Made by a program: the position numbers and the translations under genes. The notes below the pieces were generated by a model. The model was not told where the DNA came from. It was given only the letters and a program-made list of their open reading frames with translations, and did no database searches. Of a stretch of 64,000 nucleotides of DNA, positions 31,937 through 56,642 are shown one piece after another. The stretch's first letter is position 1, and each line of letters starts with the position of its first letter. Origin of the DNA: Candidatus Limnocylindrales bacterium (GTDB taxonomy: Bacteria > Chloroflexota > Limnocylindria > Limnocylindrales > CSP1-4); contig JBCLCL010000006.1 in NCBI GenBank assembly GCA_038915815.1, positions 279 through 64,278 on the forward strand, in the 5' to 3' direction.

Positions 31937-31955
31937 CGGCCCCTCCCAGACGGCA

Positions 31956-43400: not shown

Positions 43401-43686
43401 CGGACACGGTAACGGGCACGAGCGCTCGGCCCTGGTCCGCACGATCGCGGGCGATGGCGCGACAGCGGGACGTCGGCCGGACACGTTCGGGCTATCCAGA
43501 CGCGAACGTGAGGTGCTGGTGCTCGTCGCCCAAGGCCGGACAAATCGCGAGATCGGCGAGCGCCTCTTCATCAGCCAGAAGACGGTCGGCGTGCACGTCG
43601 GCAATATCCTGTCGAAGCTGGCGGTCTCAGGCCGGGTGGAAGCGGCCGCCGTGGCGATCCGCCTCGGGCTCACCGAACCGGGCTGA
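40441..43686 (+). CDS. Large ATP-binding LuxR-family regulator (LAL/MalT-like: AAA+ NTPase, TPR-like middle, C-terminal HTH)
   Basis: The N-terminus is [11 protein letters not shown]...[15 protein letters not shown] (a P-loop with Val in place of the Walker A Lys). The C-terminus is the Lux[47 protein letters not shown]. Confidence 0.85.
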
Positions 43687-43704
43687 TTCGGGCCCCGGAT
43701 GCCG

Positions 43705-43734
43705 CGAGACCCGGAGGGAGGGCTCCGGGTCTCG
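43705..43734. terminator. Bidirectional terminator-like hairpin (12-bp perfect stem)
   Basis: The stem CGAGACCCGGAG, loop ggaggg and stem CTCCGGGTCTCG lie 19 nt after the LAL stop, between convergent ORF ends. Confidence 0.6.
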
Positions 43735-43796
43735 GTCGGTATCGGGTTCGCCTCCTCCGGATGGGCACCGGTCGAGGCGGCGATGTGGTGGGTCGG

Positions 43797-43898
43797 CTAA
43801 CGCCACTTGATCCCGGCTGCGAGGGTCAGGGCGATTACGACGAGCGGGCCGATGGTGACGGCGAGGCGCCAGGCTCGGGCGATGAGGTCTTTGGCCAT
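43797..43898 (-). CDS. Possible 33-aa single-TM peptide
   Basis: Encodes MAKDLIARAWRLAVTIGPLVVIALTLAAGIKWR. It is the only coherent part of a 318-aa antisense ORF and has no recognised family. Confidence 0.25.
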   Translation of the reverse strand: MAKDLIARAWRLAVTIGPLVVIALTLAAGIKWR

Positions 43899-44096
43899 CT
43901 GGGTGGGCTCCGATCTGATGAGTCTCACAGGACACCACTCCTGGATGAGGTGGAACCCGAGACTAGGGCTGATCCCACGCAGTACAACCGACCCGATGGT
44001 ACTGGTACCCGCGACCCAGCCGTACCATCGACCACCCAGGACCACCCCGGACCACCCGCCCGCGACACGAGCCCGGCGGGCGCGATAGATTGGGGC

Positions 44097-44849
44097 ATGA
44101 CCCAAACCGGCGAGCAGCTCTGCTACACGGACGCCTACCTCCGCTCGGTCGAGGCACGTGTCGCCGCGGTCGAGCCCGGCGAGTCCGGCGAGCCGGTACT
44201 GCTGGTCCTGGACCGGACGGTCTTCTATCCGGGCGGCGGGGGCCAGCCGTCGGATCGAGGTCTGGCGCTGCGGGCACCGGACGGCCGCTCCTGGACGGTC
44301 CGCGGCGCCCACAAGTCGGCCGGCGAGATCGTCCACGAACTCGAGCCTGCCGACGGCGATCCGCCGGCGGTCGGCGATCTCCTTCGGGTGGATATCGACT
44401 GGGCTCGCCGGTTTTCCCTGATGCGGACGCACACCGCCCTGCACGCCCTGTGCGGCGTCGTCTGGCGCGACTACGGCGCGCAGGTGACCGGCGGCAACAT
44501 GGAGCCCGGCTCGGGCCGGATGGATTTCGAGTTCCAGCGGATGTCGGGCGACCTTGTCGATGCCATCGAGGTGGCCGTCAACGTGGAACTGGCGGGCGCC
44601 CGGGAGATCCGCGTCGCGGTCCTGCCGCGGGACGAGGCATTCGCCATCCCCGACCTCATCCGGACCAAGGTCAACCTCCTGCCGCCCGGGATCGAGCGGA
44701 TCCGGACGATCGAGATCGTCGGGCTCGACCTGCAGGCGGATGGCGGGACCCACGTGGCGAACACCCGTGAAGTCGGCGCGATCCGCGTGACGGGCTATGA
44801 GAGCAAGGGCCGGATCAACAAGCGCATCCGGATCGAGCTGGTCAGGTAG
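44097..44849 (+). CDS. alaX: Alanyl-tRNA editing protein (AlaX-M type, Thr/Ala-tRNA synthetase second additional domain)
   Basis: Contains TVFYPGGGGQPSD, the zinc motifs RTHTALHAL and ...ADGGTHV, and a C-terminal KGRINKRIRIEL. ATG 44097 lies 5 nt after the -10-like TAGATT. Confidence 0.8.
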   Translation: MTQTGEQLCYTDAYLRSVEARVAAVEPGESGEPVLLVLDRTVFYPGGGGQPSDRGLALRAPDGRSWTVRGAHKSAGEIVHELEPADGDPPAVGDLLRVDIDWARRFSLMRTHTALHALCGVVWRDYGAQVTGGNMEPGSGRMDFEFQRMSGDLVDAIEVAVNVELAGAREIRVAVLPRDEAFAIPDLIRTKVNLLPPGIERIRTIEIVGLDLQADGGTHVANTREVGAIRVTGYESKGRINKRIRIELVR

Positions 44850-45018
44850 ACGAACGAGTCGTCGAGCCTATTGACAACGGTTCTACGATCGAGGCTGGTA
44901 AGCGGGAGCGGAGGCGATGCCTGCCGGTGAGACAGACACATGGGCCGCAGGTGATCCGGAGGCGTCCATCGGTCGACGCCCATCGGCGTCTCGTCCTGGT
45001 CGGCCATCCTGATGATCC

Positions 45019-46224
45019 GTGGCTGCGGCGCACCGGTCGGGTGACGTGGCCAACCGGGTGATCGAGGCTCTGCAGAGGCTGAGACTCAGGTGGTTCCTCG
45101 CACGAGGGGCGCTCGGGTTCACCTCTGCCCTGCTCGAGACGAGTTATCGCATCTATTTGAATCACGCCAAGGTGATCCACTACCGCGACGGACACCCCGT
45201 CTACTCACTCTCCACTCCCGCCCTCTACAGCAAGCCCTCGGCGAATCTGCTGGCGCGATCGCTATATCGCACGATCCAGAACAGGAATCTGCCGAACATG
45301 ATGAGCCTGGCGGTGAACGACATATGCAACGCCATGTGCGAACACTGCAGTTTCTTCGAGGGCGTCGAGGACCTGACCCGGACGGTCCTGACGACGGGGC
45401 AGGCGTCCAAGGTCATCCGGCAAGGGCAGGAGCTGGGGGTCTCCGTCCTCAACTTCGTGGGCGGCGAACCCCTCCTCAGGGAGGATCTCCCCGAGCTTGT
45501 CAGTGCCGTCGACAAGGATCTCACGACAACGGTCATGTTCACCAATGGGTCGATCCTCTCGGACCGAGCTGCGAGCCTCCGCAAGGCTGGCCTCGACAGC
45601 GTCTACGTGAGCATCGATTCTGCTGATCCCGCCCAGCACGACCACTTCCGTGGCACTCCGGGCCTTTTCGACCAGGCCGTGTCGGGCATCGAAAAGGCGC
45701 TTCGCCTCGGGTTGTCGACGGGCATCTCCTGCACCATCACGCCCGAATCCTTCAAGCGGGGCGAGGTGGGTCGCATCATCGAGCTTGGCAAGGCGCTCGG
45801 CGTGCACGAAGTCCTTCTGTTCGATGCGATGCCGACGGGGCGCTACAGCGGACGGGCGGATCTCATCGACAACCAGGTCTGGGTCGAGGAGATGATCCAG
45901 GCCGCCGTGCCCTATAACCAGGATGCGTCGTGCCCGGGCGTCCTCGTCTGGGCCTACACGTCCGGCTACCGGGCGGTGGGCTGCTCGTGCGGTACGAGCT
46001 ACTTCTATGTCTCTCCCTACGGGGATGTCATGTCATGCGATTTCAACCACGCCGTCTTCGGGAATGTGCTTACCACACCGCTCTACCAGATCTGGGATTC
46101 GCTGACGTCGCGCGATGAGTTCAACCATTCGGCGTGGGGTGGTTGCAAAGTGAAGAATTCGGAGTTCCGCGAGTTGGAGTCCGTGGTCACCGGCGTCAGG
46201 GAACGGAGCGTGATGTCGAGATGA
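45019..46224 (+). CDS. Radical SAM enzyme with a C-terminal Cys-containing twitch/partial-SPASM-like domain
   Basis: Has the radical-SAM cluster AVNDICNAMCEHCSF (CxxxCxxC), the GGEPLL motif (NFVGGEPLL) and the tail GCSCGTSYFYVSPYGDVMSCDF...GGCKV. The start is uncertain (GTG 45019, 45046 or 45058). Confidence 0.85.
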   Translation: MAAAHRSGDVANRVIEALQRLRLRWFLARGALGFTSALLETSYRIYLNHAKVIHYRDGHPVYSLSTPALYSKPSANLLARSLYRTIQNRNLPNMMSLAVNDICNAMCEHCSFFEGVEDLTRTVLTTGQASKVIRQGQELGVSVLNFVGGEPLLREDLPELVSAVDKDLTTTVMFTNGSILSDRAASLRKAGLDSVYVSIDSADPAQHDHFRGTPGLFDQAVSGIEKALRLGLSTGISCTITPESFKRGEVGRIIELGKALGVHEVLLFDAMPTGRYSGRADLIDNQVWVEEMIQAAVPYNQDASCPGVLVWAYTSGYRAVGCSCGTSYFYVSPYGDVMSCDFNHAVFGNVLTTPLYQIWDSLTSRDEFNHSAWGGCKVKNSEFRELESVVTGVRERSVMSR

Positions 46225-47321
46225 CTTGGGAGCAGATCCAGGAACATGTCCGGGAGCACTACGCCAACTGGCCGACACCTGAGATCCTCCTGTTCGAGAT
46301 CTCGGTGGTCGTGGTGGCGGTCCTCGCCTATCGCTTCCTCGATGCCAGGGTCCTCAGGCTTCGGCAGCACTTCACACTTGTCGCCGTGGGCGTGTTCGCC
46401 CTGGAGTTCTTCACCGGGCCGATGTGGGAGAACCGGAATCTCGGCGTATGGGCCTACGTCTACAGCGACGTGAGCTGGATCTTCACCATCGCCTGGTCGA
46501 CGCTGATCCTGCTGACGGTGTATGGCGTGGACAACGTAGTCCGCCCACCGCGGAGCTGGCAACGTTTTGCGCTGTACCTGCTCGTTCTGACTCCGGTGAC
46601 GCTGCTTTTCGATGGCCTCTCCAAGGCCCTCGGGATCCGCGTCTACAGCCCCGAGGTCCTGGAGGCGGCCGGTCCCGCGCGGATCCCCGTCCTCGACGTA
46701 CCGGCGGCGGGCCTCTACTACATCCCGGTCTTCATGATCCTGGTGCTCTCCTTCTACAAGCACTGGCTGCCGATCGTCGAGCCCGGCGGGATGCCCGGTG
46801 ACCGGCTGCCGCTTGTCAACCGGTTGATCCTGACCACGGCCGCGGTGTTGCTGTTCGAGATCGTCGTCGAGCCGATGGCGACGAACCAGAACTTCCCGGC
46901 GTGGTCGTACGTCTTCCGTGACATCACGATCGTCATGACCGGGTTCTGGGTGCTGCTCGTGACGCTGTGCACGCTGGCGGTCGACCGGCTGCTGAGCGGA
47001 GTGGACTTCCGCCTGCGCTTTGCCGCCTACCTCGGGCTCATCGCCATCATCGCAACTCCGATCGAAGGCTGGTTCATCCAATCCGGCTATCGCGTCTATG
47101 GTCCGAGCGCGACGGCGGACTTCATCGGCTTCCGGACCCTGATCGGCGATCTCCCCCTCGAGGTCGTCGCGGCGATACCGATCTACCTTGCGCTCGTTAT
47201 CTCATTCGTCCGCTACTGGGACGGCAGCGTTGACCGGGGACTGGGCCTTCGGCCCCGTCGGTCGGCAGCTCACAGCGTCCCGGCCATGGACGCGGCAAGA
47301 CCGGTCGCGGGCCAGATCTGA
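46221..47321 (+). CDS. Polytopic membrane protein built from two homologous halves (internal duplication); unknown family
   Basis: Has an ATGA overlap with the radical SAM gene. Half 1 reads LEFFTGPMWENRNLGVWAYVYSD...GIRVYSPE...YYIPVFMILVLSFYKHW. Half 2 reads LFEIVVEPMATNQNFPAWSYVFRD...GYRVYGPS...AAIPIYLALVISFVRYW. Confidence 0.7.
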   Translation: MTWEQIQEHVREHYANWPTPEILLFEISVVVVAVLAYRFLDARVLRLRQHFTLVAVGVFALEFFTGPMWENRNLGVWAYVYSDVSWIFTIAWSTLILLTVYGVDNVVRPPRSWQRFALYLLVLTPVTLLFDGLSKALGIRVYSPEVLEAAGPARIPVLDVPAAGLYYIPVFMILVLSFYKHWLPIVEPGGMPGDRLPLVNRLILTTAAVLLFEIVVEPMATNQNFPAWSYVFRDITIVMTGFWVLLVTLCTLAVDRLLSGVDFRLRFAAYLGLIAIIATPIEGWFIQSGYRVYGPSATADFIGFRTLIGDLPLEVVAAIPIYLALVISFVRYWDGSVDRGLGLRPRRSAAHSVPAMDAARPVAGQI

Positions 47322-47346
47322 CTTCGGAGCCCGAGGAGGACGAGCG

Positions 47347-47670
47347 ATGGACAGCGAGCAGGAACGCCGCGGCGACTTGCCTGATCAGGCACCTTCGCCG
47401 TCTGACTCGGGGCCACCAGCCAAGAAAGGATGTGGCTTGTTTTTCGCGCGTTTGTTCGCGCGTTTGTTTGTCGGGGCGGTCGTCTCCTTCGTCTTCATGT
47501 CGGTGTTGTATGGGCCGGGCCAGGCTGTTCAAATCGTAGGCTTGGCCGTGATCTGCACGGCCGGCTTGAGCCTGATCGTGATCCTGCCCATGTGTTGGGT
47601 CGTGGGCTGGATCGTCATGGCCGCCTGGAGGGGGGTCTCGGGGCCGCGGGGCGTGCCCTCGGCATCCTGA
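47347..47670 (+). CDS. Small membrane protein (107 aa, 2 TM)
   Basis: ATG 47347. A polar N-terminus is followed by FFARLFARLFVGAVVSFVFMSVLYG and GLAVICTAGLSLIVILPMCWVVGWIVMAAW. Confidence 0.5.
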   Translation: MDSEQERRGDLPDQAPSPSDSGPPAKKGCGLFFARLFARLFVGAVVSFVFMSVLYGPGQAVQIVGLAVICTAGLSLIVILPMCWVVGWIVMAAWRGVSGPRGVPSAS

Positions 47671-47705
47671 CCAAGGGGCGAAACACCGCCGTGAGTCCAC
47701 AGGCG

Positions 47706-48692
47706 ATGACCCGGCCCTCACGTGTGACACGTGATCGGGCGCCGCTGCCCCCTTTCCTGATGGGCACGGACCGCCAGAGCGCCGATACCGCGTCTCTCCG
47801 CCGATCGTGGCTGCTCAAGCGGCTGGGTCGATTCGTCCTCGAGCGCTTCCCATTGCAGTCCTACGGGCCGCTCATCGTGGCGCTCGTGATCTGCGGCAGG
47901 GCGGCCGCCGCACTGGCCTCGGACGTGCCTCTCAGGGTGAATTGGGAAACCGCGGCGATCACGCTGGCCGTGGCATCCGCGTTCCTCCAGCTGCGGATCC
48001 TGGACGAGCTCAGGGACGAGGATCTTGACAGGGCAGGACGCCCTCAACGGCCCCTGCCCAGGGGACTGGTGACCGTGGCCGAACTGCGGGGTTTCGCAGC
48101 TGTCGCTGCTGTCTTCGGCCTTGCTTTTGCGGTGCCCCTCGGCGTCCCGGCGTTCGCCTGTTACCTGCTTGCGCTCGTCTCGATCTGGCTGCTCGGCGTG
48201 GACCTGCCACGCCGGCTCCCGATCGGCCATGGAGTTCTCACGTACGCGCTGATCCACTCCATCATCGCCCCCGAGATCCTGCTCTTCGTGTGGGCGACCG
48301 GGGCCGACCTGGCCGGAGGTGCCACCTTGGCGGCCGCGCTCCTGCTCGTATGGGCGGCCGGTCTTGCGATGGAGGTCGCACGGAAGATCCTGATGCCCAG
48401 CGAGGAGCGGAAAGGAGTGGAAACGTACTCGGCCGTACTCGGCCGCCCTCGCGCCATCCTGCTGGCGGCGACGGCACTGTCGGCCGCCTACCTTGGGGCC
48501 GGCGCCCTTGCGAGCTCGGTGCGGGCCCCGCTGGAGATATCGATCGTTCCCCTCCTCGCCGCGGGTGCCATCCCCCTGCTCGCCCGACAGTTTGGATACC
48601 GGATCGAGACAGCTGCCATCCAGTCCGCGGCTTCGATCCTGGTGCTGAGCGTGCTGCTATGGCCGCTGGTGATCGCGCTGGCAATGCCGTGA
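47706..48692 (+). CDS. UbiA-superfamily prenyltransferase-like membrane protein (divergent second motif)
   Basis: The first Asp-rich motif with its RP-loop is present (RILDELRDEDLDRAGRPQRPLPRGLV). The second-motif region reads MPSEERKGVETYSAVLG, with Glu where Asp is usual. About 8 TM segments. The start may be 47706 or 47760. Confidence 0.7.
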   Translation: MTRPSRVTRDRAPLPPFLMGTDRQSADTASLRRSWLLKRLGRFVLERFPLQSYGPLIVALVICGRAAAALASDVPLRVNWETAAITLAVASAFLQLRILDELRDEDLDRAGRPQRPLPRGLVTVAELRGFAAVAAVFGLAFAVPLGVPAFACYLLALVSIWLLGVDLPRRLPIGHGVLTYALIHSIIAPEILLFVWATGADLAGGATLAAALLLVWAAGLAMEVARKILMPSEERKGVETYSAVLGRPRAILLAATALSAAYLGAGALASSVRAPLEISIVPLLAAGAIPLLARQFGYRIETAAIQSAASILVLSVLLWPLVIALAMP

Positions 48693-51295
48693 CGGATTCC
48701 AAAGTCGGCGGAGAGCGCTCGCCGATCTACGAACCTGCCTCCAGGGCTGCCGTGCCTTCGGACGTGGGCGGCAAGGCACTTGGCCTGCTCGCCATTGCCG
48801 AGGCGGGCCTGGACACGCCGCCGTGGTTTGCAATGCTTCCCGGGTCAGTGCAGGCGGACGGGTCAGTCTCCGAGGCAGTCAGAGTCCAGGTCGCGGAGGC
48901 GTGCCAGCGACTCGGATCCGGTGGCGCAGAGAGCTTCGCTATTCGGTCGTCAGCTCAGGACGAGGACGCGCCAGGGCAGTCGTTTGCCGGGCAGTACCTC
49001 AGCAGGCTCGACGTTCGGGGCGTCGACAACGTTCTCGAGGCGATCGTGAGCTGCGCCCAGTGGCCAACTCGGGGAGGCGTCGACGCCTATCGGCGCGCAC
49101 AGGGACAGGGCTCGACCAACCTTCCGCTCGCCGTGATCGTTCAGCTGTTCGTGCCTCCCGGCAGCGCCGGGGTGGCGTTCAGTCGCGCGCCGCTGTCGGG
49201 AGATGACGAGGTGGTGATCGCCGCCACGCGCCGGGCCGGCGCGCTGACAGGCGGCGCAGTAAACGGCGACGAGTACCGCGTCGCAGCCGATGATCGGGTA
49301 GCCGTCGTCCGGGTCGACCCGGAGGAGTCGCCTCCGATGCCTGGTCAGGGCGGGACCCTCGGGCGGGTGGACGGCGGTCCGCACAACGGGCGCGTCCTCG
49401 CCGACGAGCAGGCGCGCTTCGTGGCTCAGGCAGCGAGGCTGCTCGAGCGACGGCGCGGCGCACCGCAGGATATCGAATGGGCGTACTCGGCGACGGGGCA
49501 GCTCTTCGTCCTCCAGGCGCGACCCATCACAGCGCTCCCTCCGGCGTCATCTCCGCGGGCGCAGGTCCGACTCTGGGACAACGCCAACATCGTCGAGAGC
49601 TTCCCGGAGCTCACGCTTCCCCTCACCTTTTCGGTGGCCGTCGGAGTGTACGCAACGGTGTATCGCGCCGCATGCCTCGCATTGGGCGTGCCGCGCGCGA
49701 CCGTGGAGCGGGAAGCGCCTGTGTTCGTGCAGATGCTCGGGCTCCTTCAGGGACGGGTCTACTACAACCTGACAAGCTGGTATCGCGTCCTGGCCCTGCT
49801 GCCGGGGTTCCGGCTGACTGCGGGCTTCCTCGAGGCCATGATGGGAACCGCACGACCGGGCGCCAAGCCCAATGAGCGGACCGTCCCCGTCGTTGCCCGG
49901 GCCACGCGCTGGTGGGAGATCGCCGGGATGACCGTGCGTTTGTCATACCGGCTGCTCCGGTTCGGCTCCGACGCAGCGCGCTTCCAGGCATCCATCGCCC
50001 AGCTGCTTGAGATCCATCGCGAGGCCCCGGCTCCGGGCGCGTCACCCGAGGCACTCCTGGCCGACTTCGATCGGTTCCGCGCGAGCGCCCTCCGGGATTG
50101 GCGTGCGCCCATCATGAATGACCTCTTTCTGATGTTGTCGCACGGCGCCCTGAGGCGCGTGGCCGACCGCTGGCTCGGGACCGACGCACGAAGCCTCGTC
50201 AATGCCCTCATCGTCCAGGGGACCGTCGTGAGCGCGTTGCCCGGGAAGGATCTCCTCCGGATCGCTGCCGCCATTCGCGAGCGAAGCGATTGGTACGACG
50301 TCATCATGTCGACGCCGCCCGAGACACTCCGCGCACGCCTCGACGCCGAGCCCGAGCTCGCTGGGCTTTCTGCGCTGATCGAGGGCTATCTCGAGACCTG
50401 GGGCGACAGGTCTCCCCGTGAATTGCAGCTGGAGCGTCCCAGCTACCGAGACGATCCCCTGCCGCTGCTCCGCGCCGTACGCTCACTGGTCAGCGCTTCG
50501 TCGACCGGGCGGGAAGGAGTCGCCGTTCAGGCCGCACTGCACGTCCGCCGTCGCTTGCTCACCCGTCAGCTGGGGCTGCTCCGCGTGGCGGTCTTCTCGG
50601 TCCTCCTTCGCGCAACTCGCCGGCACATCGGGTGGCGGGAGGAGATGCGACTGGCAAGGGGGCAGGTGTTCGGGGTTGGACGACGGATCTTCCGACGCCT
50701 GGGCGAAGCGTTGAGCGACCAGGGAGCCCTCGAGCGACCCGAGGACGTCCACTACCTGTCCCTGGACGAACTCCGCGGGATGATCACGGGCACGGCGGTC
50801 GTCGGCGATCCTCGAGCACTCGTGCGCCTGCGTCGAGCTCAGTACGACGACTATGCCTCCCGCCCCCGGCTGCCATCCCGATTCGAAACCAGAGGCCTTG
50901 TAGTCGACCCTCTCGGCCTGGACCCTTCGATCGGCACCCCGGCACCGAACCGCGGGCTCCGTGCGTGGAAGGGTATCGGCACCTCGAACGGGCGGGCGAG
51001 AGCCCCGTGCCTCGTCGTGCGCGATCCGACCCAAGTGACCCTCATGCCCGGGCATATCATCGTGGCCCGCACGACGGACCCCGGATGGGTCCCTATCCTC
51101 GTGGGCGCAGCGGGACTGCTCGTCGAGCAAGGAAGCCTGCTGTCGCATTCCGCGATCGTCGCGCGGGAGCTTGGGATCCCGATGGTCGTTGGCCTGGACG
51201 GCCTGCTTGATCTCGTGCGGACTGGGGACGTCCTCGAACTGGATGGTTCCACCGGGGAGGTGAGGATGGAGACCGCGCTGGACGGAGCCGCGTGA
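48689..51295 (+). CDS. PEP-utilising-enzyme family phosphotransferase: ATP-grasp (PPDK_N-like) N-terminus + swivel phospho-His C-terminus, no PEP/pyruvate barrel (rifampin-phosphotransferase-like architecture)
   Basis: GTG 48689 overlaps the upstream stop. The N-terminus has GGKALGLLAI...FAIRSSAQDEDAPGQSFAGQY. The C-terminus has IIVARTTDPGWVPILVGAAGLLVEQGSLLSHSAIVARELGIPMVVGL. Length is 868 aa. Confidence 0.8.
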   Translation: MTDSKVGGERSPIYEPASRAAVPSDVGGKALGLLAIAEAGLDTPPWFAMLPGSVQADGSVSEAVRVQVAEACQRLGSGGAESFAIRSSAQDEDAPGQSFAGQYLSRLDVRGVDNVLEAIVSCAQWPTRGGVDAYRRAQGQGSTNLPLAVIVQLFVPPGSAGVAFSRAPLSGDDEVVIAATRRAGALTGGAVNGDEYRVAADDRVAVVRVDPEESPPMPGQGGTLGRVDGGPHNGRVLADEQARFVAQAARLLERRRGAPQDIEWAYSATGQLFVLQARPITALPPASSPRAQVRLWDNANIVESFPELTLPLTFSVAVGVYATVYRAACLALGVPRATVEREAPVFVQMLGLLQGRVYYNLTSWYRVLALLPGFRLTAGFLEAMMGTARPGAKPNERTVPVVARATRWWEIAGMTVRLSYRLLRFGSDAARFQASIAQLLEIHREAPAPGASPEALLADFDRFRASALRDWRAPIMNDLFLMLSHGALRRVADRWLGTDARSLVNALIVQGTVVSALPGKDLLRIAAAIRERSDWYDVIMSTPPETLRARLDAEPELAGLSALIEGYLETWGDRSPRELQLERPSYRDDPLPLLRAVRSLVSASSTGREGVAVQAALHVRRRLLTRQLGLLRVAVFSVLLRATRRHIGWREEMRLARGQVFGVGRRIFRRLGEALSDQGALERPEDVHYLSLDELRGMITGTAVVGDPRALVRLRRAQYDDYASRPRLPSRFETRGLVVDPLGLDPSIGTPAPNRGLRAWKGIGTSNGRARAPCLVVRDPTQVTLMPGHIIVARTTDPGWVPILVGAAGLLVEQGSLLSHSAIVARELGIPMVVGLDGLLDLVRTGDVLELDGSTGEVRMETALDGAA

Positions 51296-52413
51296 CTGCG
51301 ACCCGCGGGCCGGAGACACTCGGTCGCGACCTGCTCTACTCCCAGTGCTGGGAAGATGTCGACGTCGCGCGGGCAGCGCTCCGGATTCGACCCGGGAACA
51401 CGGTGCTGACGATCGGAGCCGCGGGCGACAACACGCTCGCCCTCCTGCAGGACGACCCCGGCTGCGTGCTGGCCCTTGATGTGAACCCGTCGCAGACGGC
51501 CCTGATGCATCTCAAGATGGCCGCCATCGGGCGCCTGGTCGATGCCGGGCAGGTCAGCCGTTTCCTGGGGGGAACATCCTCCCCGGATCGAACCGCGGTC
51601 TACAAGACCCTGCGCACAACGCTCGCGCCGGAGGCGCAGCGCTACTGGGATGGCAATCTGCCGATGATCGAGGGCGGGGTGATCCACGCAGGAAGATTCG
51701 AACGCTACCTCTCAGGTTTCCGACGCGCGGTCCTACCCCTTGTGCCCGGGCGACGAGCCGTTCGAGAGATGCTGCGCGCGACAAGCCTCGACGTGCAGCG
51801 CCGCATCTACCATGAGAGCTGGGACACGAGTCGCTGGCGGCTGCTGTTCAGGCTCTTCTTCAGCCGGAGCCTCATGGGACGCTTCGGACGAGACCCGGCC
51901 TTCTTCGCCCAGTGCGAGATCGCCGACATCGGCGATCACTATCTGTTGCGGGCTGAGCATGCACTCACCAACCTGCCGATCTGGACCAACCCATACCTCA
52001 CCTACATGCTCAGTGGGAGATTCGGCACCGACCGGCGGATTCCTGATTACCTGCGGCCCGCGGTGCAAGCGATCGTGCGTGAGCGGATCGACCGCGTCGT
52101 GGTCCAGACGGCAAGCCTCGACGACGTGCTCAGGGACCTGCCCTCGGACTCCGTCGACGCGTTCTACCTCTCGGACGTCTTCGAGCTCTCCACGATGACG
52201 GAGTACTCTTCGACGCTCACAGAGATCGCCAGGGTTGGCCGGGTGGGTGCCCGCATCTGCTACTGGAACAATCTCGTCACCCGCCGTCGCCCAGACGCGC
52301 TGGCGGGTGCGCTCGTGAGCCATCAGGACGAGGCCAGGTCACTCCACGCACAGGACAGGGCCTTTCTCTACTCGAGGTTGGTCATCGAGTCCGTGCGGAG
52401 TCGCGCTGGATGA
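51292..52413 (+). CDS. DUF3419 / BtaA-like SAM-dependent protein (second paralogue in the window)
   Basis: Contains LLYSQCWEDVDVARAALRIRPGNTVLTIGAAGDNTLALL...VLALDVNPSQTALMHLK and a C-terminal LSDVFE. Has a GTGA overlap with the upstream gene. Confidence 0.75.
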   Translation: MTATRGPETLGRDLLYSQCWEDVDVARAALRIRPGNTVLTIGAAGDNTLALLQDDPGCVLALDVNPSQTALMHLKMAAIGRLVDAGQVSRFLGGTSSPDRTAVYKTLRTTLAPEAQRYWDGNLPMIEGGVIHAGRFERYLSGFRRAVLPLVPGRRAVREMLRATSLDVQRRIYHESWDTSRWRLLFRLFFSRSLMGRFGRDPAFFAQCEIADIGDHYLLRAEHALTNLPIWTNPYLTYMLSGRFGTDRRIPDYLRPAVQAIVRERIDRVVVQTASLDDVLRDLPSDSVDAFYLSDVFELSTMTEYSSTLTEIARVGRVGARICYWNNLVTRRRPDALAGALVSHQDEARSLHAQDRAFLYSRLVIESVRSRAG

Positions 52414-53198
52414 TGGGCGAGACATGGGCGCCGATGCTCCTCGTGGCCGGCTCATACCTGGCCATGTTCGGGATCGGCGAACTGTTGCGCCGGGCACGAC
52501 TCGCCCGCGCCGAGGTGACCCGCAGGTCCAACCACGTCGGCGCGGGTGTCATCGCTCTGGCCTTGCCGCTGCTCTTTGATTCACCCTGGCCCGTTCTCGC
52601 CCTTGCAGTCCCATTTGTGGCGTTTCTGTTGGCAACCAAGCTCATCGGATGGCTTGGCTCGGTGCATGGGATTTCGCGCCGAAGCGCCGGGGCCTTCCTC
52701 TACCCAGTGTCGATCGCCGCCACCTTCGTGATCGCTTCGGATAACTACCCTCACTACGCGATCGCCGTTCTTGCGCTGGCCCTCGGAGACCCCGCGGCCG
52801 GGGTTGCCGGCGAACGCTGGAAGCAGCACTCGTATTCTGCCTGGGGACAGGTGAAGACGTGGGAAGGATCGCTTGCGGCGTTGACCGTCACGACCGCGCT
52901 GTCCAGTTCCGTTCTCGTGCTCATTGGCGTTCCACCCGTGGGCGCGTGCGTGACGGGGGCCTTCATCGGCGTCGTGGTTGCCCTGATCGAGGGCGCGCTG
53001 CCGTGGGGGTTGGACAATCTCGGGATCCCCCTCGCGACACTTGCTTCCCTGAGCGCTGCGGGGTCGGCCGTGTCCGCCGTCCTCACGGTGCTGGGCGCCG
53101 CAGCGCTGTTCGGACTGGCCCTGACTGCACCGCGGCTGCCAGGCGCTCGCCGCCGTGGGCGCCCCACGCAACGAGCGGTCGGCTCCGATGCAGAGTGA
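52410..53198 (+). CDS. CTP-transferase-1 superfamily membrane protein (phytol/dolichol-kinase or CdsA/CarS-like)
   Basis: ATGA overlap with the upstream gene. About 7 TM segments. Has the signature LGDPAAGVAGERW...GQVKTWEGSLA (GD...G...K-T/S-x-E-G-S). Confidence 0.65.
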   Translation: MMGETWAPMLLVAGSYLAMFGIGELLRRARLARAEVTRRSNHVGAGVIALALPLLFDSPWPVLALAVPFVAFLLATKLIGWLGSVHGISRRSAGAFLYPVSIAATFVIASDNYPHYAIAVLALALGDPAAGVAGERWKQHSYSAWGQVKTWEGSLAALTVTTALSSSVLVLIGVPPVGACVTGAFIGVVVALIEGALPWGLDNLGIPLATLASLSAAGSAVSAVLTVLGAAALFGLALTAPRLPGARRRGRPTQRAVGSDAE

Positions 53199-54231
53199 GC
53201 TGCTCGAGTTCGGTTCCCGAAACCCCGGCCCGATAGCGCCGCTCCTGTCGCTGTCGCCCATGGAGGCGGCACTGCTGGCGCCCGATCACCCATTCCTGCA
53301 GTTCGGGGAGTGGCGAGCATTCGCGGTCCAGCTTGGAGGCATCGTCGTCGCTCGCCTGGTCGCCAGCATCGACTCCCGGCAGCGGACAACGGCGAGGACG
53401 GTGGGCTGCATCGGATTCGCAAACGTGCGCACGCGGGAAGCTGGATCCCCTCCCGCCCGGGCGGCCGCGGAGCGGGTCCTCACAGCGGCGGTCAGATGGC
53501 TCCAGGACCGGGGAGTCAGCGTGATCCGGTGCCCGGTGCAGTTTTCGACGTGGTACGGCCATCGCGCCATGACGGCCGGCTTCCCGAGCTCGGGCGGCGC
53601 GCCGGCGTTTCCGATGGAACCTCAAGACGATCGCGACCTCGTCGATCTCGTGCTGGCGAGCGACTTTGCTCCCGTGCATCGCGCCGTCTCTTACGCTGTC
53701 CGGTCCGACGCGGTCATCGCCAGCGCAGGTCCCGCGCTCGACCGGCTGGGCAAGGCCGGCCTCCATGCCAGGCCCATCCGGATCTCCCAGTTGGAGGAGG
53801 AACTCCGCCTGCTCCACCAGTTGTCGGTCGATGTCTTCCGAGACAGTTGGGGGTTCAGCGAGATCTCGTTCGATGAATTCTCGTCGTTGTACCGTCCGAC
53901 GGCGGATCTCGCCGACGCTGAACTCATTCGGATTCTCGAGACCGCCAACGAGCATGCGCTCGGATTCGCATTCGCGATGCCTCACTTCCCGGGTCACACC
54001 GGAGCCGGCGGCTTCATCGTGAAGACACTCGGGTTGTTACCCGAGGCACGCCGGCGGTATCCGGGGGTCGGCGCAGGTCTGACAGCGTGGATCCATCAGG
54101 CTGCCCTTGAGCGCGGGCATGTGGGTGGCATCCACGCGCTGATGGCCCAAGGATCGATGGCGCACCGGATGACGATGCGCTGGGGGACACAACTACGGTC
54201 GTACGCGACCTTTGAGCGAGCGAACCCGTGA
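53188..54231 (+). CDS. Two-lobed GNAT-like N-acyltransferase
   Basis: The N-lobe has VGCIGFANV...AAERVLTAAVRWLQDRGVSVIRCP. The C-lobe has LGFAFAMP...IVKTLGLLPEARRRYPGVGAGLTAWIHQAALERG (a Q/R-x-x-G-x-G/A acyl-CoA loop). Overlaps the upstream gene by 11 nt. Confidence 0.55.
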   Translation: MQSELLEFGSRNPGPIAPLLSLSPMEAALLAPDHPFLQFGEWRAFAVQLGGIVVARLVASIDSRQRTTARTVGCIGFANVRTREAGSPPARAAAERVLTAAVRWLQDRGVSVIRCPVQFSTWYGHRAMTAGFPSSGGAPAFPMEPQDDRDLVDLVLASDFAPVHRAVSYAVRSDAVIASAGPALDRLGKAGLHARPIRISQLEEELRLLHQLSVDVFRDSWGFSEISFDEFSSLYRPTADLADAELIRILETANEHALGFAFAMPHFPGHTGAGGFIVKTLGLLPEARRRYPGVGAGLTAWIHQAALERGHVGGIHALMAQGSMAHRMTMRWGTQLRSYATFERANP

Positions 54232-55787
54232 CCGACAGCGCGGCGGCGACGCCCAACGTTGCCGTTCACCTCGAACGCTCCGCTGCTCGTCGCGGGAGCG
54301 CGGCGGGCATCGTTTCGACCGACGGACGTGTCCTTTGGACGTTCGAAGATCTCGCTGAAGCCGCCGCGCGCCTCGCCGGCGGGCTGGTCGAGCTTGGGCT
54401 TGGGGACGGCGACCGGGTCCTCGTCCTCGAACCGGACCCTCGCGAACTCTTCCGAGTCGTCGCCGGCGTCATCTGGGCCGGAGCGTCCGTGGTTCTCCCT
54501 CCCGGGTCATTGCCCTTGCCTCGCGCTCTCGAGGCGGCCGCGGCATCCAGACCGCAAGCTGTGGCCGCGAGCCTCCTGCTGTGGCCGGCGGCTCTCGCAT
54601 ACAACGAGCTGAGGAAGGCCCCTATCCGCGTTGCGAGCGGGAGCTGGCGGTTTCTCAACGCGGCGAGTGTGCAGGCCCTGAGTCGCCATCAACCGATCGC
54701 GCCACAAACCGTTTCGGCGCAGAGTCCCGCGCTGTTGTCCTTCACGACCGGCAGCACCGGACCCGCGAAGGCCGTGATGCGCACCCACGCAGTGCTGCAG
54801 GCACAACATCACGCACTCAGGAGCCTGCGTGGGCTCGGCGACACCGACCGTGACTTCGCGGGATTGCCCCTGCTCGTCCTTCACAACCTGGGGTCGGGTG
54901 TGACGAGCGTTCTTGCGCCGAGGGGCCCCGGTTCACGGCAGTACGGTCGGAAGGTTCGCGAGACGCTTGCCCGCTCGCGTGCCACGTCCGCGGCGGGCTT
55001 CCCGCATCTGTTCGAGTCGGTTGTCAACGGGGCAGGCGACGGCGACCTCGATGGCCTTCGCTCGATCTACATCGGCGGCAGTCACACTCGCCCCGAGCTG
55101 TTGGCGGCTCTGAAAGCCGTCGCCCCGAACGCCGCGATCACGGTGGTATACGGCAGCACCGAGATCGAGCCGATCGCCGCCATCGACGCTGAGGAGTACC
55201 TCGACCTGTTGGCACGAAGCGATCCAGCGGATGGAACGTGCGTCGGCATGGTGCTCGATGGCCTCGACCTGCGGGTCCAGCCACACCCCGAACGGCCCGG
55301 AACGTCGCCAGCGCGCCGCGCAGGTGGGAGGATCCTGCTGCGTGGTCCCCGGGCATCACGACGATCGGGAGCCGGCGAATGGGTGGATACCGGCGACGCC
55401 GGTCGCGTCGATCGCGATGGGCGACTGTGGCTGCTGGGACGCGCCGACAACGCCGTCGGCAACCTCTACCCAGTCGAGGTCGAGCGCGTCGTCGAGGCTC
55501 TGCCATGGGTCAGCCGCGCGGCCCTCGTGCGCGTCGGGTCCAGTCCTCGAACCAAGGCGCTTCTCGCTGTGCAGCCGCTCCAGTGGGGCAGTGCCGGCGC
55601 ACGTGCCGAGCAGCTTCAGCGGCTCAAGCGCATCGCGCGGGAACGAGATTGGTCGCTTGACGACGTCGTCCTGCTCAGACGGTTGCCGGTGACACGTGGT
55701 GCCGCGGCGAAGGTCGACGATGGCCGTCTCAGGAAGCTCGCCGCGACGGCGGGGCTGCCGCGATCCGCGAACCCGACTCAGGATTGA
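54228..55787 (+). CDS. AMP-dependent synthetase/ligase (adenylate-forming enzyme)
   Basis: Has an AMP-binding core (LLSFTTGSTGPAKAVMRTH, VYGSTEIEP, WVDTGDAGRVDRDGRLWLLGR). GTGA overlap with the upstream gene. Confidence 0.8.
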   Translation: MTDSAAATPNVAVHLERSAARRGSAAGIVSTDGRVLWTFEDLAEAAARLAGGLVELGLGDGDRVLVLEPDPRELFRVVAGVIWAGASVVLPPGSLPLPRALEAAAASRPQAVAASLLLWPAALAYNELRKAPIRVASGSWRFLNAASVQALSRHQPIAPQTVSAQSPALLSFTTGSTGPAKAVMRTHAVLQAQHHALRSLRGLGDTDRDFAGLPLLVLHNLGSGVTSVLAPRGPGSRQYGRKVRETLARSRATSAAGFPHLFESVVNGAGDGDLDGLRSIYIGGSHTRPELLAALKAVAPNAAITVVYGSTEIEPIAAIDAEEYLDLLARSDPADGTCVGMVLDGLDLRVQPHPERPGTSPARRAGGRILLRGPRASRRSGAGEWVDTGDAGRVDRDGRLWLLGRADNAVGNLYPVEVERVVEALPWVSRAALVRVGSSPRTKALLAVQPLQWGSAGARAEQLQRLKRIARERDWSLDDVVLLRRLPVTRGAAAKVDDGRLRKLAATAGLPRSANPTQD

Positions 55788-55943
55788 TGGAACTCCCTCC
55801 ACTCCGAGAGGGCGCGGCCTGGTCGACGCCTCCGCTAACCTCCAGACGTCCGTCGTCGGCACGCCCGCTGTCACCCCGCCTCCTCCGACCCCATAGACTG
55901 GCGACCTGACCGCCGACCCCCGCCAAAGCGGAGATCGCCCGAC

Positions 55944-56642
55944 ATGCCGCCCGTTGATCTCGTCCTGCAGCTCGACATCTCGGTCCGGCTGCTCATCGCG
56001 TCCCTGCTCGGGGCGGCGATCGGGCTGGAGCGCGAGATCCACGCTCACCCGGCCGGGATGCGGACGCACCTGCTCGTCTCGCTCGGGTCTGGCGCGTTCA
56101 CCGTCCTGTCGATCTTCTTCTTCGCGACGGCGACCGCTCCGAACGGCTCGCTCCCGACCGATCCATCACGGATCGCCGCCCAGATCGTCTCGGGCATCGG
56201 CTTCCTTGGCGCCGGGGCGATCCTCAAGTACGGCTCGTCAGTGCGCGGCCTGACGACTGCGGCCAGTCTGTGGGCGACGGCGGCGGTCGGCATGGCTGCC
56301 GGGGCGGGGGCGTGGGTCGTCGCCGCGGTGACGACCGTCCTGATCGTCCTTTCGCTCGGGCCGCTCAACCGGCTCATCGCCAGGTTCCGGATCCGCGAGC
56401 CACAACTGTTCCGGCTGCGGCTCCTGGCCGGCCGACTCGAAGCGCTCGGCGAGATCTCCCGGACACTCGCCAGCAACCGGATCGAGATGGCCGGTGTGAG
56501 CAGCCAGCGCCTCGGCAAGGGCCGCTACGAGATCGAGCTCGACCTCCGCCCGCCGGCCGGCACCAAGCCCGAGACGATCATCGCGGCGGTCTCGTCGGTG
56601 GCCGACGTCGAGATCCTCGAGGCCGGCGCCCCGACCGAGTGA
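55944..56642 (+). CDS. mgtC: MgtC/SapB family membrane protein
   Basis: The sequence RLLIASLLGAAIGLEREIHAHPAGMRTHLLVSLGSGAF is the family's N-terminal signature. Has a C-terminal ACT-like domain. Confidence 0.85.
   Translation: MPPVDLVLQLDISVRLLIASLLGAAIGLEREIHAHPAGMRTHLLVSLGSGAFTVLSIFFFATATAPNGSLPTDPSRIAAQIVSGIGFLGAGAILKYGSSVRGLTTAASLWATAAVGMAAGAGAWVVAAVTTVLIVLSLGPLNRLIARFRIREPQLFRLRLLAGRLEALGEISRTLASNRIEMAGVSSQRLGKGRYEIELDLRPPAGTKPETIIAAVSSVADVEILEAGAPTE

Follow-up and report, generated by a model that had tools for sequence, protein, structure and literature searches.

The nine genes that fill positions 45019–55787 on the forward strand of the window, the 64,000-nt stretch of DNA analysed here, represent one copy of a modular pathway that occurs widely and has not been characterised so far. 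On balance, we consider that it probably makes or remodels a polar membrane lipid of isoprenoid origin whose head group is of the amino-acid type. The observations behind this reading are gene order, coupling, domain identities, conservation, co-occurrence and two alternative modules. The original prediction, made from the sequence alone, had matched the gene combination to no characterised pathway, and our literature search agreed, as it found no paper or characterised pathway with this gene set.

Organization of the operon

Most of the genes overlap by 4–11 nt, with ATGA at 46221–46224, GTGA at 48689–48692, GTGA at 51292–51295, ATGA at 52410–52413, ATGCAGAGTGA at 53188–53198 and GTGA at 54228–54231; the two non-overlapping junctions are gaps of 25 and 35 nt. 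The six junctions reported in the original prediction match the sequence exactly, and its description of nine same-strand genes separated by overlaps or gaps of less than 40 nt is borne out. Public assemblies of the same species carry the identical nine gene calls. A scan found no sigma-70-type promoter consensus, and terminator-like sites did not exceed their frequency in shuffled sequence; coupling and conservation indicate that the nine genes are a real operon, probably expressed as a single transcript. The arrangement goes beyond chance, since dozens of distant genomes have the gene set in the same order. The upstream genes for a LAL-type regulator and an AlaX-like protein lie outside the unit.

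Integral membrane proteins and members of lipid-enzyme families account for six of the nine products. Pfam matches above the curated cut-offs were obtained for five genes (Radical_SAM and SPASM; UbiA; PPDK_N and PEP-utilizers; DUF3419; AMP-binding), and all NCBIfam equivalog-level models were below their cut-offs for the operon products. Together with orthologue, profile, fold and PDB matches, these results largely confirm the domain assignments first made.

The core genes

The first gene (45019–46224, +) encodes a radical SAM enzyme of 401 aa with a SPASM/twitch-type C-terminal cysteine region (Pfam Radical_SAM, E 7e-21; SPASM, E 4e-7), and the CNAMCEHC (CxxxCxxC) motif is visible in its translation. 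No NCBIfam equivalog reached its cut-off, the best being NirJ2/AhbD-like (about 124 bits, cut-off 500), and the best PDB sequence matches are BlsE, SkfB, MoaA and PqqE. This gene lies directly 5′ of the following one in 79 of 90 loci.

The second gene (46221–47321, +) encodes an integral membrane protein of 366 aa, here called dupTM, which is the marker of the whole system. Its halves are 29% identical over 145 aa (E 2e-17), so that the internal duplication predicted for this membrane protein is real, but it concerns one gene only. The protein has no match in Pfam or NCBIfam. Its AF2 model (pLDDT 88.5) has about nine transmembrane helices and short beta-hairpins, and a comparison with PDB folds gave no match (best E 0.4, TM <0.3). 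Many conserved polar residues occur within the membrane helices in the family alignment. Among 46 members of the family, eight weakly match Pfam Lycopene_cyc and two Caroten_synth; these matches, at 12–18 bits against Pfam cut-offs of 25–27, are sub-threshold, weak yet consistent. From the model and the alignments, dupTM appears to have a new fold, with a faint relationship to lycopene cyclase and carotenoid hydratase. The family is tiny, with 86 clusters among 5.8 billion proteins and, in a second count, 119 representatives among 1.84 billion, and the rarity of this marker makes the gene association specific.

The third gene (47347–47670, +), which the original prediction left unnamed, encodes a membrane protein of 107 aa with two helices and the conserved motif S-I-I-C-T-x-G-I-x-L-V-x-W-x-P. 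Its ATG is preceded by the Shine-Dalgarno-like GAGGAGG, and it is annotated as a gene in public assemblies. A homologue follows dupTM in 76 of the 90 loci, and some genomes carry two to five tandem paralogues; the gene is missing from several otherwise complete clusters (L020, L027, L032 and L047). The transmembrane hairpin is the most conserved part; the alignment has a Gly that is invariant and a Cys-Thr that is nearly so, the Cys being substituted in some members, such as those of L019 and L031. Most other phyla have a C-terminal soluble domain that the protein of the host clade lacks. The adjacency of a SPASM-type radical SAM enzyme and a conserved small protein is an observation that runs counter to the lipid reading.

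The UbiA-like and RPH-like genes

A membrane protein of 328 aa resembling UbiA-superfamily prenyltransferases is encoded at 47706–48692 (+; Pfam UbiA, 46.8 bits, cut-off 34.2). An alignment of 25 orthologues upheld the predicted combination of an intact first motif and a degenerate second one: the first Asp-rich motif and RPxPRG are retained, and an invariant E-x-x-R-K stands in place of the second Asp-rich motif. Since the canonical second motif is absent, the protein may not use prenyl diphosphate in the usual way. Its best solved relative in profile searches is the DGGGP synthase of M. jannaschii (6m31, E 1e-9), and every NCBIfam equivalog scored far below its cut-off.

The next gene (48689–51295, +) encodes an RPH-like dikinase of 868 aa with an ATP-grasp domain, a central domain and a swivel phospho-histidine domain (Pfam PPDK_N, E 1e-39; PEP-utilizers, E 1e-22; Rph_4th in addition in the precomputed Pfam list). 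Public gene calls use an alternative start at 48656, 33 nt upstream. Pfam reported no PEP/pyruvate-binding domain, in agreement with the absence of this barrel in the original prediction, and the His motif LSHSAIVAR is present. The best PDB matches are rifampin phosphotransferases (5fbs/5hv1, E 2e-47), and the RPH equivalog scored 221 bits against a cut-off of 999. The RPH-like gene adjoins UbiA in 53 loci and is split in two in Patescibacteria.

The putative head-group genes and the KTWEGS gene

The gene at 51292–52413 (+) encodes a DUF3419/BtaA-like SAM-dependent transferase of 373 aa that matches Pfam DUF3419 over its full length (E 8e-62). JGI automatically names its homologues S-adenosylmethionine-diacylglycerol 3-amino-3-carboxypropyl transferase; DUF3419 genes in rhizobial records, with 26–30% identity over about 94% of the length, are called "DUF3419 family protein", not BtaA, where annotated. 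A second, divergent DUF3419 gene is found elsewhere in the window, beside canonical phospholipid genes.

At 52410–53198 (+) is encoded the KTWEGS membrane protein of 262 aa, which orthologue and fold matches relate to CdsA and dolichol-phytol kinases. The window protein has no Pfam match, but CTP_transf_1 is weakly matched by 5 of 17 orthologues, two close homologues have a precomputed PF01148 match, and the JGI name for the family is dolichol or phytol kinase. For its AF2 model (pLDDT 90.8), the top four PDB fold matches are all the CDP-DAG synthetase TmCdsA (probability 0.6–0.77, E 0.14). It is 32% identical to a Patescibacteria cluster member.

The GNAT-like acyltransferase (53188–54231, +; 347 aa, two domains) also has no Pfam match in the window. 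Its homology to the orthologue of locus L007 extends over the full length (E 8e-20), this orthologue matches Acetyltransf_1 (E 2e-8), and in the family profile the C-terminal domain matches GNAT structures. The last gene (54228–55787, +) encodes an AMP-binding (ANL) adenylating enzyme of 519 aa, acyl-CoA ligase-like (Pfam AMP-binding, E 6e-36), with PRK09274, fatty acid CoA ligase family, as best NCBIfam model (208 bits, cut-off 478). The DUF3419 and GNAT genes each occur in 31 of 90 loci and the adenylase gene in 16, always with the GNAT gene and usually with DUF3419 too.

Distribution and modules

A search with the dupTM profile revealed 80 loci in which these genes recur, in many cases with their order kept. 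The loci come from at least six phyla (Chloroflexota, many Cyanobacteria, Patescibacteria, Planctomycetota, Verrucomicrobiota/Lentisphaerae and Bacteroidota), and cultured carriers include Oscillatoria sp. PCC 10802, Calothrix sp. NIES-4105 and Microseira wollei NIES-4236. The genes thus recur together in other genomes, the check that had been proposed for the original prediction. The near-universal core is the triad of the radical SAM, dupTM and small membrane protein genes, then usually the UbiA-like and RPH-like genes. This triad, rather than the head-group enzymes, is, judging from its conservation, the apparent heart of the system; since some loci contain the triad alone, its role could be distinct from that of the lipid enzymes.

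Two alternative sets are added to this core: the DUF3419/BtaA-like, GNAT and adenylase genes, as in the window, or a CDP-alcohol phosphatidyltransferase (CDP-OH_P_transf) and a CarS-like gene, found in clusters that lack DUF3419 and AMP-binding, such as those of Patescibacteria, where a thioester reductase and PlsC are also present. NAD_binding_4 thioester reductases and a PlsC acyltransferase are seen in L020, L028 and L039, and in L020 a thioester reductase occupies the place of the radical SAM gene. Five loci, from Chloroflexota, Verrucomicrobiota, Lentisphaerae and Bacteroidota, have an HMG-CoA reductase translationally coupled inside the cluster (E 1e-104 to 1e-120). In L010, a CrtI/CrtD-type FAD oxidase adjoins the triad, with tblastn matches in L042 and L075.

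Proposed pathway

We infer every catalytic role, and the product, from superfamily membership. The UbiA-like enzyme would attach a prenyl or alkyl group to an acceptor in the membrane. The RPH-like dikinase, with ATP and its swivel histidine, would phosphorylate a hydroxyl of the lipid intermediate, and the KTWEGS protein, as a putative member of the CdsA/polyprenol-kinase superfamily, would perform a CTP-dependent phosphorylation or activation. At the membrane, the radical SAM enzyme, dupTM and the two-helix partner would modify the hydrocarbon chain; since dupTM faintly resembles lycopene cyclase/carotenoid hydratase, this may involve cyclisation, hydration, cross-linking or saturation. In the window genome, the DUF3419/BtaA-like enzyme would then add a SAM-derived 3-amino-3-carboxypropyl head group (homoserine-type, phosphorus-free), and in Patescibacteria the CarS-like protein and CDP-alcohol phosphatidyltransferase would provide a phosphodiester head group instead. 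The adenylating enzyme would supply the GNAT, which in turn would N-acylate the amine of the head group.

The isoprenoid link is supported by the embedded HMG-CoA reductase, the apparent kinship with DGGGP synthase, the weak likeness of dupTM to Lycopene_cyc and Caroten_synth and the CrtI/CrtD-type oxidase; the lipid link, by the CarS-like/CDP-OH_P_transf pair, NAD_binding_4, PlsC and the likeness of KTWEGS to CdsA. The lipid or isoprenoid reading of the original prediction thereby gains independent support from the HMG-CoA reductase and from the CarS-like and CDP-alcohol phosphatidyltransferase clusters. Its "self-contained route" is not supported: no lipid-acceptor or backbone gene was identified, and the window operon showed neither a glycerol-phosphate backbone gene nor a polyprenyl diphosphate synthase gene.

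Other explanations were considered. The genes could serve the tailoring of a carotenoid, polyprenoid or meroterpenoid end group, adding polar groups to a pigment or signalling terpenoid. In C50 carotenoid synthesis, a UbiA-type elongase pairs with cyclase or hydratase membrane proteins, and here a UbiA-family enzyme accompanies dupTM with its weak likeness to Lycopene_cyc and Caroten_synth; the oxidase of L010, with its tblastn matches in L042 and L075, and the LAL-type regulator upstream in the window also fit. We regard such a specialised metabolite as rather unlikely, since phytoene synthase/desaturase is absent in and beside the window operon, the regulator is not conserved even in a sister strain, and pigment pathways are not expected in Patescibacteria, whose clusters hold the lipid-type genes described above. 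These bacteria are generally considered to rely on lipids from outside, and their possession of the cluster, the two predicted kinase-type activities without backbone-synthesis genes, and the PlsC and thioester reductase accessories would suit a salvage or remodelling route. Free alcohols (polyprenols, fatty alcohols) or lysolipids would be taken up or recycled, re-phosphorylated by the KTWEGS and RPH-like proteins and re-attached to acceptors, with no new lipid class made de novo. However, the embedded HMG-CoA reductase implies a de novo isoprenoid supply, and a core of radical SAM and dupTM does not readily fit a pure salvage role, which makes this route very unlikely.

Modification of a protein or peptide appears improbable to us as well. 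The small protein would be the substrate (RiPP- or lipidation-target-like), altered by the radical SAM/SPASM enzyme and dupTM, for example at Cys-Thr, and the UbiA-like and other enzymes would attach and decorate a lipid. Peptide maturation is the typical role of SPASM/twitch radical SAM enzymes, which act more often on peptides, and SkfB and PqqE are among the nearest relatives; the small gene regularly follows dupTM, has tandem paralogues, as precursor genes often do, and encodes a nearly invariant Cys-Thr-x-Gly. Yet its best-conserved part is a membrane hairpin with no leader/core arrangement, the Cys can be replaced, the gene can be absent, and in L020 the radical SAM gene itself is exchanged. 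The CarS-like, CDP-alcohol transferase, BtaA-like, HMG-CoA reductase and PlsC genes point instead to small-molecule lipid chemistry. High-G+C DNA gives many long spurious ORFs on both strands, and promoter and terminator signals are not above background, as chance neighbours or ORF artefacts without a common function would have it. This has a negligible probability: five genes have curated domain matches, most are joined by overlapping start and stop codons, and synteny kept across phyla with G+C from 37% to 72% effectively refutes it.

Comparison with known systems

The proposed lipid pathway shares elements with several known systems. As in the C50-carotenoid end-group machinery (the UbiA-type lycopene elongase CrtEb/LyeJ with the cyclase CrtYe/Yf or the hydratase CruF), a UbiA-family enzyme occurs with a membrane protein of two repeats or two subunits, and dupTM has weak matches to Lycopene_cyc and Caroten_synth. 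However, all these matches are below Pfam cut-offs, the operon lacks crtB/crtI, and enzymes such as its radical SAM, RPH-like and head-group proteins are not known from carotenoid pathways. The RPH-like protein resembles RPH and PigC/RedH in its ATP-grasp, central domain and swivel His without the PEP/pyruvate barrel, but it scores 208–230 bits against PigC/RedH cut-offs of 1300–1350, and its gene lies beside the UbiA-like gene in a lipid-type cluster and is split in some phyla.

The archaeal phospholipid route proceeds from DGGGP synthase, which forms the archaeal ether bond, through the CDP-archaeol synthase CarS and CDP-alcohol phosphatidyltransferases to the radical SAM tetraether synthase Tes/GDGT-MAS. 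The solved relative of the UbiA-like protein, the CarS-like and CDP-OH_P_transf genes of the Patescibacteria version and a radical SAM enzyme that could act on lipid tails recall this route. On the other hand, the cluster has no GGGP synthase or G1P dehydrogenase; the DGGGPS equivalog gives about 30 bits (cut-offs 296–353) for the UbiA-like protein, with its second Asp-rich motif replaced; the radical SAM enzyme shows no more than a remote similarity to GDGT-MAS (E 1e-5); no archaeal counterpart is known for dupTM or for the small, RPH-like and GNAT proteins; and the window version lacks CarS and the CDP-alcohol transferase. Compared with betaine lipid synthesis (BtaA/BtaB; DGTS), the window operon lacks the BtaB N-methyltransferase, and to our knowledge GNAT, adenylase, UbiA and RPH-like partners are not known in DGTS synthesis. 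Nevertheless, the full-length DUF3419 domain is that of the BtaA family, and the idea of phosphorus-free versus phosphate-containing head groups fits the two alternative modules.

Organization of the operon and its surroundings

The operon occupies positions 45019–55787 on the + strand and encodes, in this order, a radical SAM protein, a 366-aa internally duplicated membrane protein (dupTM), a 107-aa small two-helix protein, a UbiA-like protein, an RPH-like protein, a DUF3419 protein, a membrane protein with weak similarity to CdsA and dolichol or phytol kinases (the KTWEGS protein, after its motif), a GNAT-like protein and an AMP-binding protein. Translation of the region reproduced every junction of the original prediction, namely ATGA at 46221, GTGA at 48689, GTGA at 51292, ATGA at 52410, GTGA at 54228 and the 11-nt overlap at 53188–53198; the remaining junctions are gaps of 25 and 35 nt. 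The prediction of nine translationally coupled ORFs thus holds, while the list of names that accompanied them lacked the small gene, which lies between the dupTM and UbiA-like genes (47347–47670) and has GAGGAGG before its ATG. In public assemblies of the same species the encoded proteins are identical, and nine genes are called across the operon. A promoter and terminator scan was uninformative.

The G+C content is about 70% for the whole window and 64–69% for the operon region. Within positions 44001–56000, the operon (64–69%) can be compared with flanking DNA of 70–74%; the lower value is a mild hint of horizontal acquisition. Directly upstream, on the same strand (40441–44849), are a LAL-type regulator (AAA_16 + GerE, 1081 aa) and an AlaX-like tRNA_SAD protein. 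These were considered as members of the cluster and rejected, since they are not conserved: the sister assembly L002 (L-numbers denote loci in other assemblies) has a DDE transposase at their position, which places both genes outside the conserved unit.

Assignment of the gene products

Five products exceeded Pfam cut-offs, in agreement with the domains predicted for them: Radical_SAM + SPASM, UbiA, PPDK_N + PEP-utilizers, DUF3419 and AMP-binding. The dupTM, KTWEGS and GNAT-like proteins had no Pfam or NCBIfam match of their own, and the small protein had sub-threshold Pfam matches only. No NCBIfam equivalog model reached its cut-off for any gene of the operon, so that equivalog-level names were rejected and the enzymes are assigned to known superfamilies without a named functional family.

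The radical SAM protein contains CNAMCEHC, of the CxxxCxxC type (PF04055, 75.6 bits against a cut-off of 29.5). Its tail matches PF13186 (30.6 bits, cut-off 21.5) with about five visible Cys against seven in a full SPASM domain, and from its sequence the C-terminus resembles a twitch or partial SPASM domain more closely.

The UbiA-like protein (PF01040, 46.8 bits, cut-off 34.2) belongs to a family in which D-E-x-x-D-x-x-x-D followed by R-P-x-P-R-G is kept across 25 orthologues. The second Asp-rich motif (DxxxD), which in UbiA enzymes binds Mg2+ and diphosphate, is missing in all 25 and an invariant E-x-x-R-K is present instead. The best solved relative of the family profile is the DGGGP synthase of M. 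jannaschii (6m31), at only E 1e-9, and the DGGGP synthase models NF009521 and NF009522 gave 26–30 bits against cut-offs of 296–353.

In the RPH-like protein, an ATP-grasp domain, a central domain and a swivel-His domain with the motif LSHSAIVAR are present and the PEP/pyruvate domain is absent. Its best solved relatives are rifampin phosphotransferases (E 2e-47), yet it lies far under the equivalog cut-offs for RPH, PigC and RedH (220.7 bits against 999 for the RPH model NF041857). Identity with PEP synthase or PPDK is not indicated either, as Pfam finds PPDK_N and PEP-utilizers without the C-terminal TIM-barrel, and the PEP_synth equivalog gives 157 bits against 740.

The DUF3419 protein covers positions 8–382 of the 385 of PF11899 (E 8e-62) and contains QCWED...LTIGAAGDN, which corresponds to the W-E-D and GxGxN-type SAM motif of BtaA; the operon contains no methyltransferase gene that could stand for the partner BtaB. 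The AMP-binding protein (PF00501, E 6e-36) contains TTGSTGPAK, the TGSTGxxK core of ANL enzymes.

For the KTWEGS family, 5 of 17 orthologues matched CTP_transf_1 weakly (best E 0.029), two homologues carry a precomputed PF01148 assignment, and the JGI family name is dolichol or phytol kinase. A structure predicted from homologues gathered by protein search (AF2, pLDDT 90.8) had the CDP-DAG synthetase TmCdsA as all four of its top PDB fold matches, which are weak (probability 0.6–0.77, E 0.14, TM 0.30). The family profile matched no PDB sequence, and hhalign of the KTWEGS and CarS-like alignments paired only the K-T-W-x-G motif (14 columns, probability 3%). Members of about 450 aa (L019:18796–20124, L047:10508–11872, L083:5981–7339) have an extra hydrophobic C-terminal extension of about 230 aa, and in L019 a second KTWEGS paralogue adjoins a gene for HMG-CoA reductase.

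The GNAT-like protein, by itself below Pfam detection, has the acyl-CoA-binding loop R-R-Y-P-G-V-G-A-G and is homologous over its full length (E 8e-20) to an orthologue that matches Acetyltransf_1 at E 2e-8. A Fem/MprF-type aminoacyl-tRNA-dependent transferase, suggested by the AlaX-like gene upstream, was rejected: the family profile matches classical acyl-CoA GNAT structures in the C-terminal domain, and the AlaX-like gene is not conserved.

The duplicated membrane protein and its small neighbour

The two halves of dupTM are 29% identical (E 2e-17), which reflects an internal duplication. The protein belongs to a very small family (86 clusters in 5.8 billion proteins; 119 representatives at 50% identity in 1.84 billion), in which every named member is a "hypothetical protein". 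The closest relatives come from a Chloroflexi MAG (64%) and Ca. Limnocylindrales (60%), and on this basis the window most likely belongs to an uncultured member of the Chloroflexota. A confident AF2 prediction (pLDDT 88.5) shows about nine helices and short hairpins. It matched no fold in the PDB (best E 0.4), solved structures of the Lycopene_cyc or Caroten_synth families did not surface in that search, and kinship with Insig, MFS or transporters was rejected at TM scores of 0.3 or lower.

Among 46 diverse members of the family, eight matched PF18916 (Lycopene_cyc) below threshold (best E 0.0045; 12–18 bits against a cut-off of 27) and two matched PF04240 (Caroten_synth), also below threshold (E 0.002); families other than Lycopene_cyc recurred in two members at most, and dupTM of the window itself matched neither model. 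Half-size relatives with a single repeat were observed among metagenomic proteins (P0258–P0293), and fall into first-repeat and second-repeat types. Ten of them were compared with the same models: three weak Lycopene_cyc matches, spanning most of the 92-position model, were all in first-repeat-type proteins, and two weak Caroten_synth matches were in second-repeat-type halves. The existence of two half-size types suggests that the ancestors of dupTM may have been heterodimeric, like CrtYc/CrtYd. The Lycopene_cyc and Caroten_synth matches are weak but coherent evidence that dupTM descended from membrane enzymes acting at the terminal isoprene unit of carotenoids.

In the small protein, two helices form a hairpin that bears the conserved motif S-I-I-C-T-x-G-I-x-L-V-x-W-x-P, and the transmembrane part is the best conserved. 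Most phyla have, in addition, a conserved helical domain at its C-terminus, absent from the clade of the window. Up to five tandem paralogues occur (L008:11028–12919; L007:11028–11839), each with this C-terminal domain, whose consensus among them (Y-I-x-x-A-x-x-x-G-x-S-D-x-x-I-x-x-x-L-x-x-x-G-W) is missing from the window copy.

Conservation across phyla

A dupTM profile scan with one genome per species recovered 80 loci. In Chloroflexota they occur in Limnocylindrales, Anaerolineae, Caldilineaceae and Dehalococcoidia; many others belong to Cyanobacteria, including cultured Calothrix, Oscillatoria sp. PCC 10802, Spirulina subsalsa, Microseira wollei and Synechococcus, and the remainder to Patescibacteria, Planctomycetota, Verrucomicrobiota/Lentisphaerae and Bacteroidota. 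Co-occurrence was scored by tblastn within 10 kb of dupTM at 90 loci, including six copies from the window's own species. With dupTM present at 90/90, the radical SAM gene was found at 79, the small two-helix protein at 76, the UbiA-like gene at 58, the RPH-like gene at 53, DUF3419 and GNAT at 31 each, KTWEGS at 28, the AMP-binding gene at 16, CDP-OH_P_transf at 12 and a CarS-like gene at 11. These families also emerged from unbiased clustering of all neighbourhood ORFs against one another. The gene-neighbourhood check that the original prediction had called for shows that the gene set recurs across phyla.

The conserved genes form three layers. The core is a triad of radical SAM, dupTM and small protein genes, nearly always in this order, and the second layer is the pair of UbiA-like and RPH-like genes. 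Some Patescibacteria and Dehalococcoidia have two genes in place of a single RPH-like gene, one encoding the ATP-grasp domain and the other the central and His domains. The third layer comprises two alternative sets. One, with DUF3419 and GNAT and sometimes the adenylase and KTWEGS, is found in the window and in cyanobacteria, Verrucomicrobiota, Dehalococcoidia and Bacteroidota; the other, in Patescibacteria, consists of a CDP-alcohol phosphatidyltransferase, a CarS-like gene, KTWEGS and GNAT. GNAT accompanies both. In Anaerolineae, the triad is immediately preceded by a class IV aminotransferase gene (L013:7263–8246, L015:234–1157, L016:6295–7275, L017:7393–8379), an identity that Pfam shows for L013 and L016, and at these four loci UbiA and RPH-like genes are absent within 10 kb.

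Associated genes and a second lipid-type operon

HMG-CoA reductase genes (E 1e-104 to 1e-120) are tightly packed inside homologous clusters at five loci from four phyla (L014:2776–4062, L019:12830–14116, L047:12967–13983, L074:5551–6828, L083:8451–9728), in Caldilineaceae, Verrucomicrobia, Victivallales and Cyclobacteriaceae. The CarS-like protein and CDP-alcohol phosphatidyltransferase of the patescibacterial set are lipid head-group enzymes. Genes for NAD_binding_4 thioester reductases are present at L020, L028 and L039, and one for a PlsC acyltransferase at L028. In L020, from one Dehalococcoidia genome, the reductase ("male sterility" type, 8663–9922) takes the usual radical SAM position directly upstream of dupTM, and both the radical SAM gene and the small protein are absent from the locus. 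In L010 a gene for a CrtI/CrtD-like FAD oxidase borders the triad, and L042 and L075 give tblastn matches to this oxidase.

The window also holds a second lipid-type operon on the − strand (29547–34472), divergent from a cdsA gene (PF01148, E 7e-42) and a PlsC gene at 27400–28970 (+). It includes a fusion of AMP-binding, PP-binding and PlsC-acyltransferase domains (838 aa), a protein of 438–460 aa with no Pfam match, and a second, divergent DUF3419 gene (357 aa), whose product is only 32% identical to the copy of the nine-gene operon over the N-terminal 168 aa. As this gene lies beside canonical lipid genes, the two BtaA-like genes of the genome stand in different lipid contexts.

Proposed pathway and alternative explanations

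On balance, we favour the view that the operon encodes a pathway building a polar isoprenoid lipid, with each of the individual steps less certain than the whole. The UbiA-like enzyme would transfer a prenyl or alkyl group within the membrane; the RPH-like and KTWEGS enzymes would carry out ATP- and CTP-dependent phosphorylation or activation; and the hydrocarbon chain would be altered by the radical SAM enzyme, which would dock on dupTM together with the small subunit. The head group could be SAM-derived, through the BtaA-like enzyme, and thus phosphorus-free and of homoserine type, or could be installed by CDP activation and a CDP-alcohol transferase. GNAT, supplied by the adenylase, may then N-acylate an amine of the head group. 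An amine-bearing head group is suggested chiefly by the alternation of the DUF3419 and CarS-like/CDP-alcohol sets, both of which GNAT accompanies. The HMG-CoA reductase genes and the kinship of the UbiA-like family with DGGGP synthase are clues to an isoprenoid, and the CarS-like, CDP-alcohol phosphatidyltransferase, thioester reductase and PlsC genes are clues to a lipid. The lipid or isoprenoid interpretation of the original prediction finds partial support here, strengthened by the conservation data. A more specific and tentative proposal, which we regard as possible but doubtful, is that the cluster makes an unrecognised, phylum-spanning class of bacterial isoprenoid lipid, perhaps ether-type and archaeal-like, in which a phosphorus-free homoserine-type head group can be exchanged for a phosphodiester and the chain is remodelled by a new membrane fold (dupTM and its small subunit) with the radical SAM enzyme.

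Among the alternatives, a cluster for carotenoid or meroterpenoid tailoring rather than bulk lipid synthesis is rather unlikely: the analogy of dupTM and UbiA with C50-carotenoid genes speaks for it, but it fits the patescibacterial version poorly, and crtB and crtI are absent. Modification of a protein or peptide, with the small membrane protein as target, would account for the SPASM-type radical SAM enzyme, the tandem small genes and their near-invariant Cys. This Cys is not universal, however, the conserved part of the small protein is transmembrane, some complete clusters lack its gene, and in L020 a reductase stands in place of the radical SAM enzyme; we consider the explanation quite unlikely. 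Nor does the small protein answer to a RiPP precursor with leader and core beside its maturase, being a conserved two-helix membrane hairpin. Salvage or remodelling of external alcohols or lipids is judged very unlikely, and the chance of accidental neighbours or ORF artefacts is next to nil, as synteny across phyla excludes it.

Significance and comparison with known systems

If the polar isoprenoid lipid pathway is correct, ecologically dominant groups would share a conserved route to an undescribed lipid: freshwater and soil Chloroflexota, filamentous cyanobacteria and picocyanobacteria, Planctomycetota/Verrucomicrobiota and also Patescibacteria. Patescibacteria are usually described as incapable of synthesizing their own membrane lipids; on the more specific and tentative proposal, they, the cyanobacteria and the Chloroflexota would gain a lipid pathway that bears on the "lipid divide" between bacteria and archaea. 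The cluster is relevant to open problems concerning the isoprenoid and ether lipids of bacteria and the membranes of Patescibacteria, and could aid the assignment of orphan lipids in environmental lipidomes. It would add a new membrane-protein fold with a radical SAM partner, RPH-type dikinases in a context beyond antibiotic resistance, and a natural case in which head-group modules with and without phosphate are exchanged on a single lipid core. The lipid hypothesis is directly testable, because several cultured cyanobacteria have the full cluster.

A search of the full-text literature found no description of this gene combination, and the one cyanobacterial paper in which DUF3419 appears names it solely as a flanking gene. 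In parts, the operon resembles the archaeal phospholipid pathway, betaine-lipid synthesis, the RPH-type dikinases and the end-group enzymes of C50 carotenoids, but it differs from each of these four systems in the equivalog or partner tests. It is a lipid or isoprenoid biosynthetic operon of largely known superfamilies with two new protein families at its core, and the cluster may be categorically new if its product is a new lipid class.
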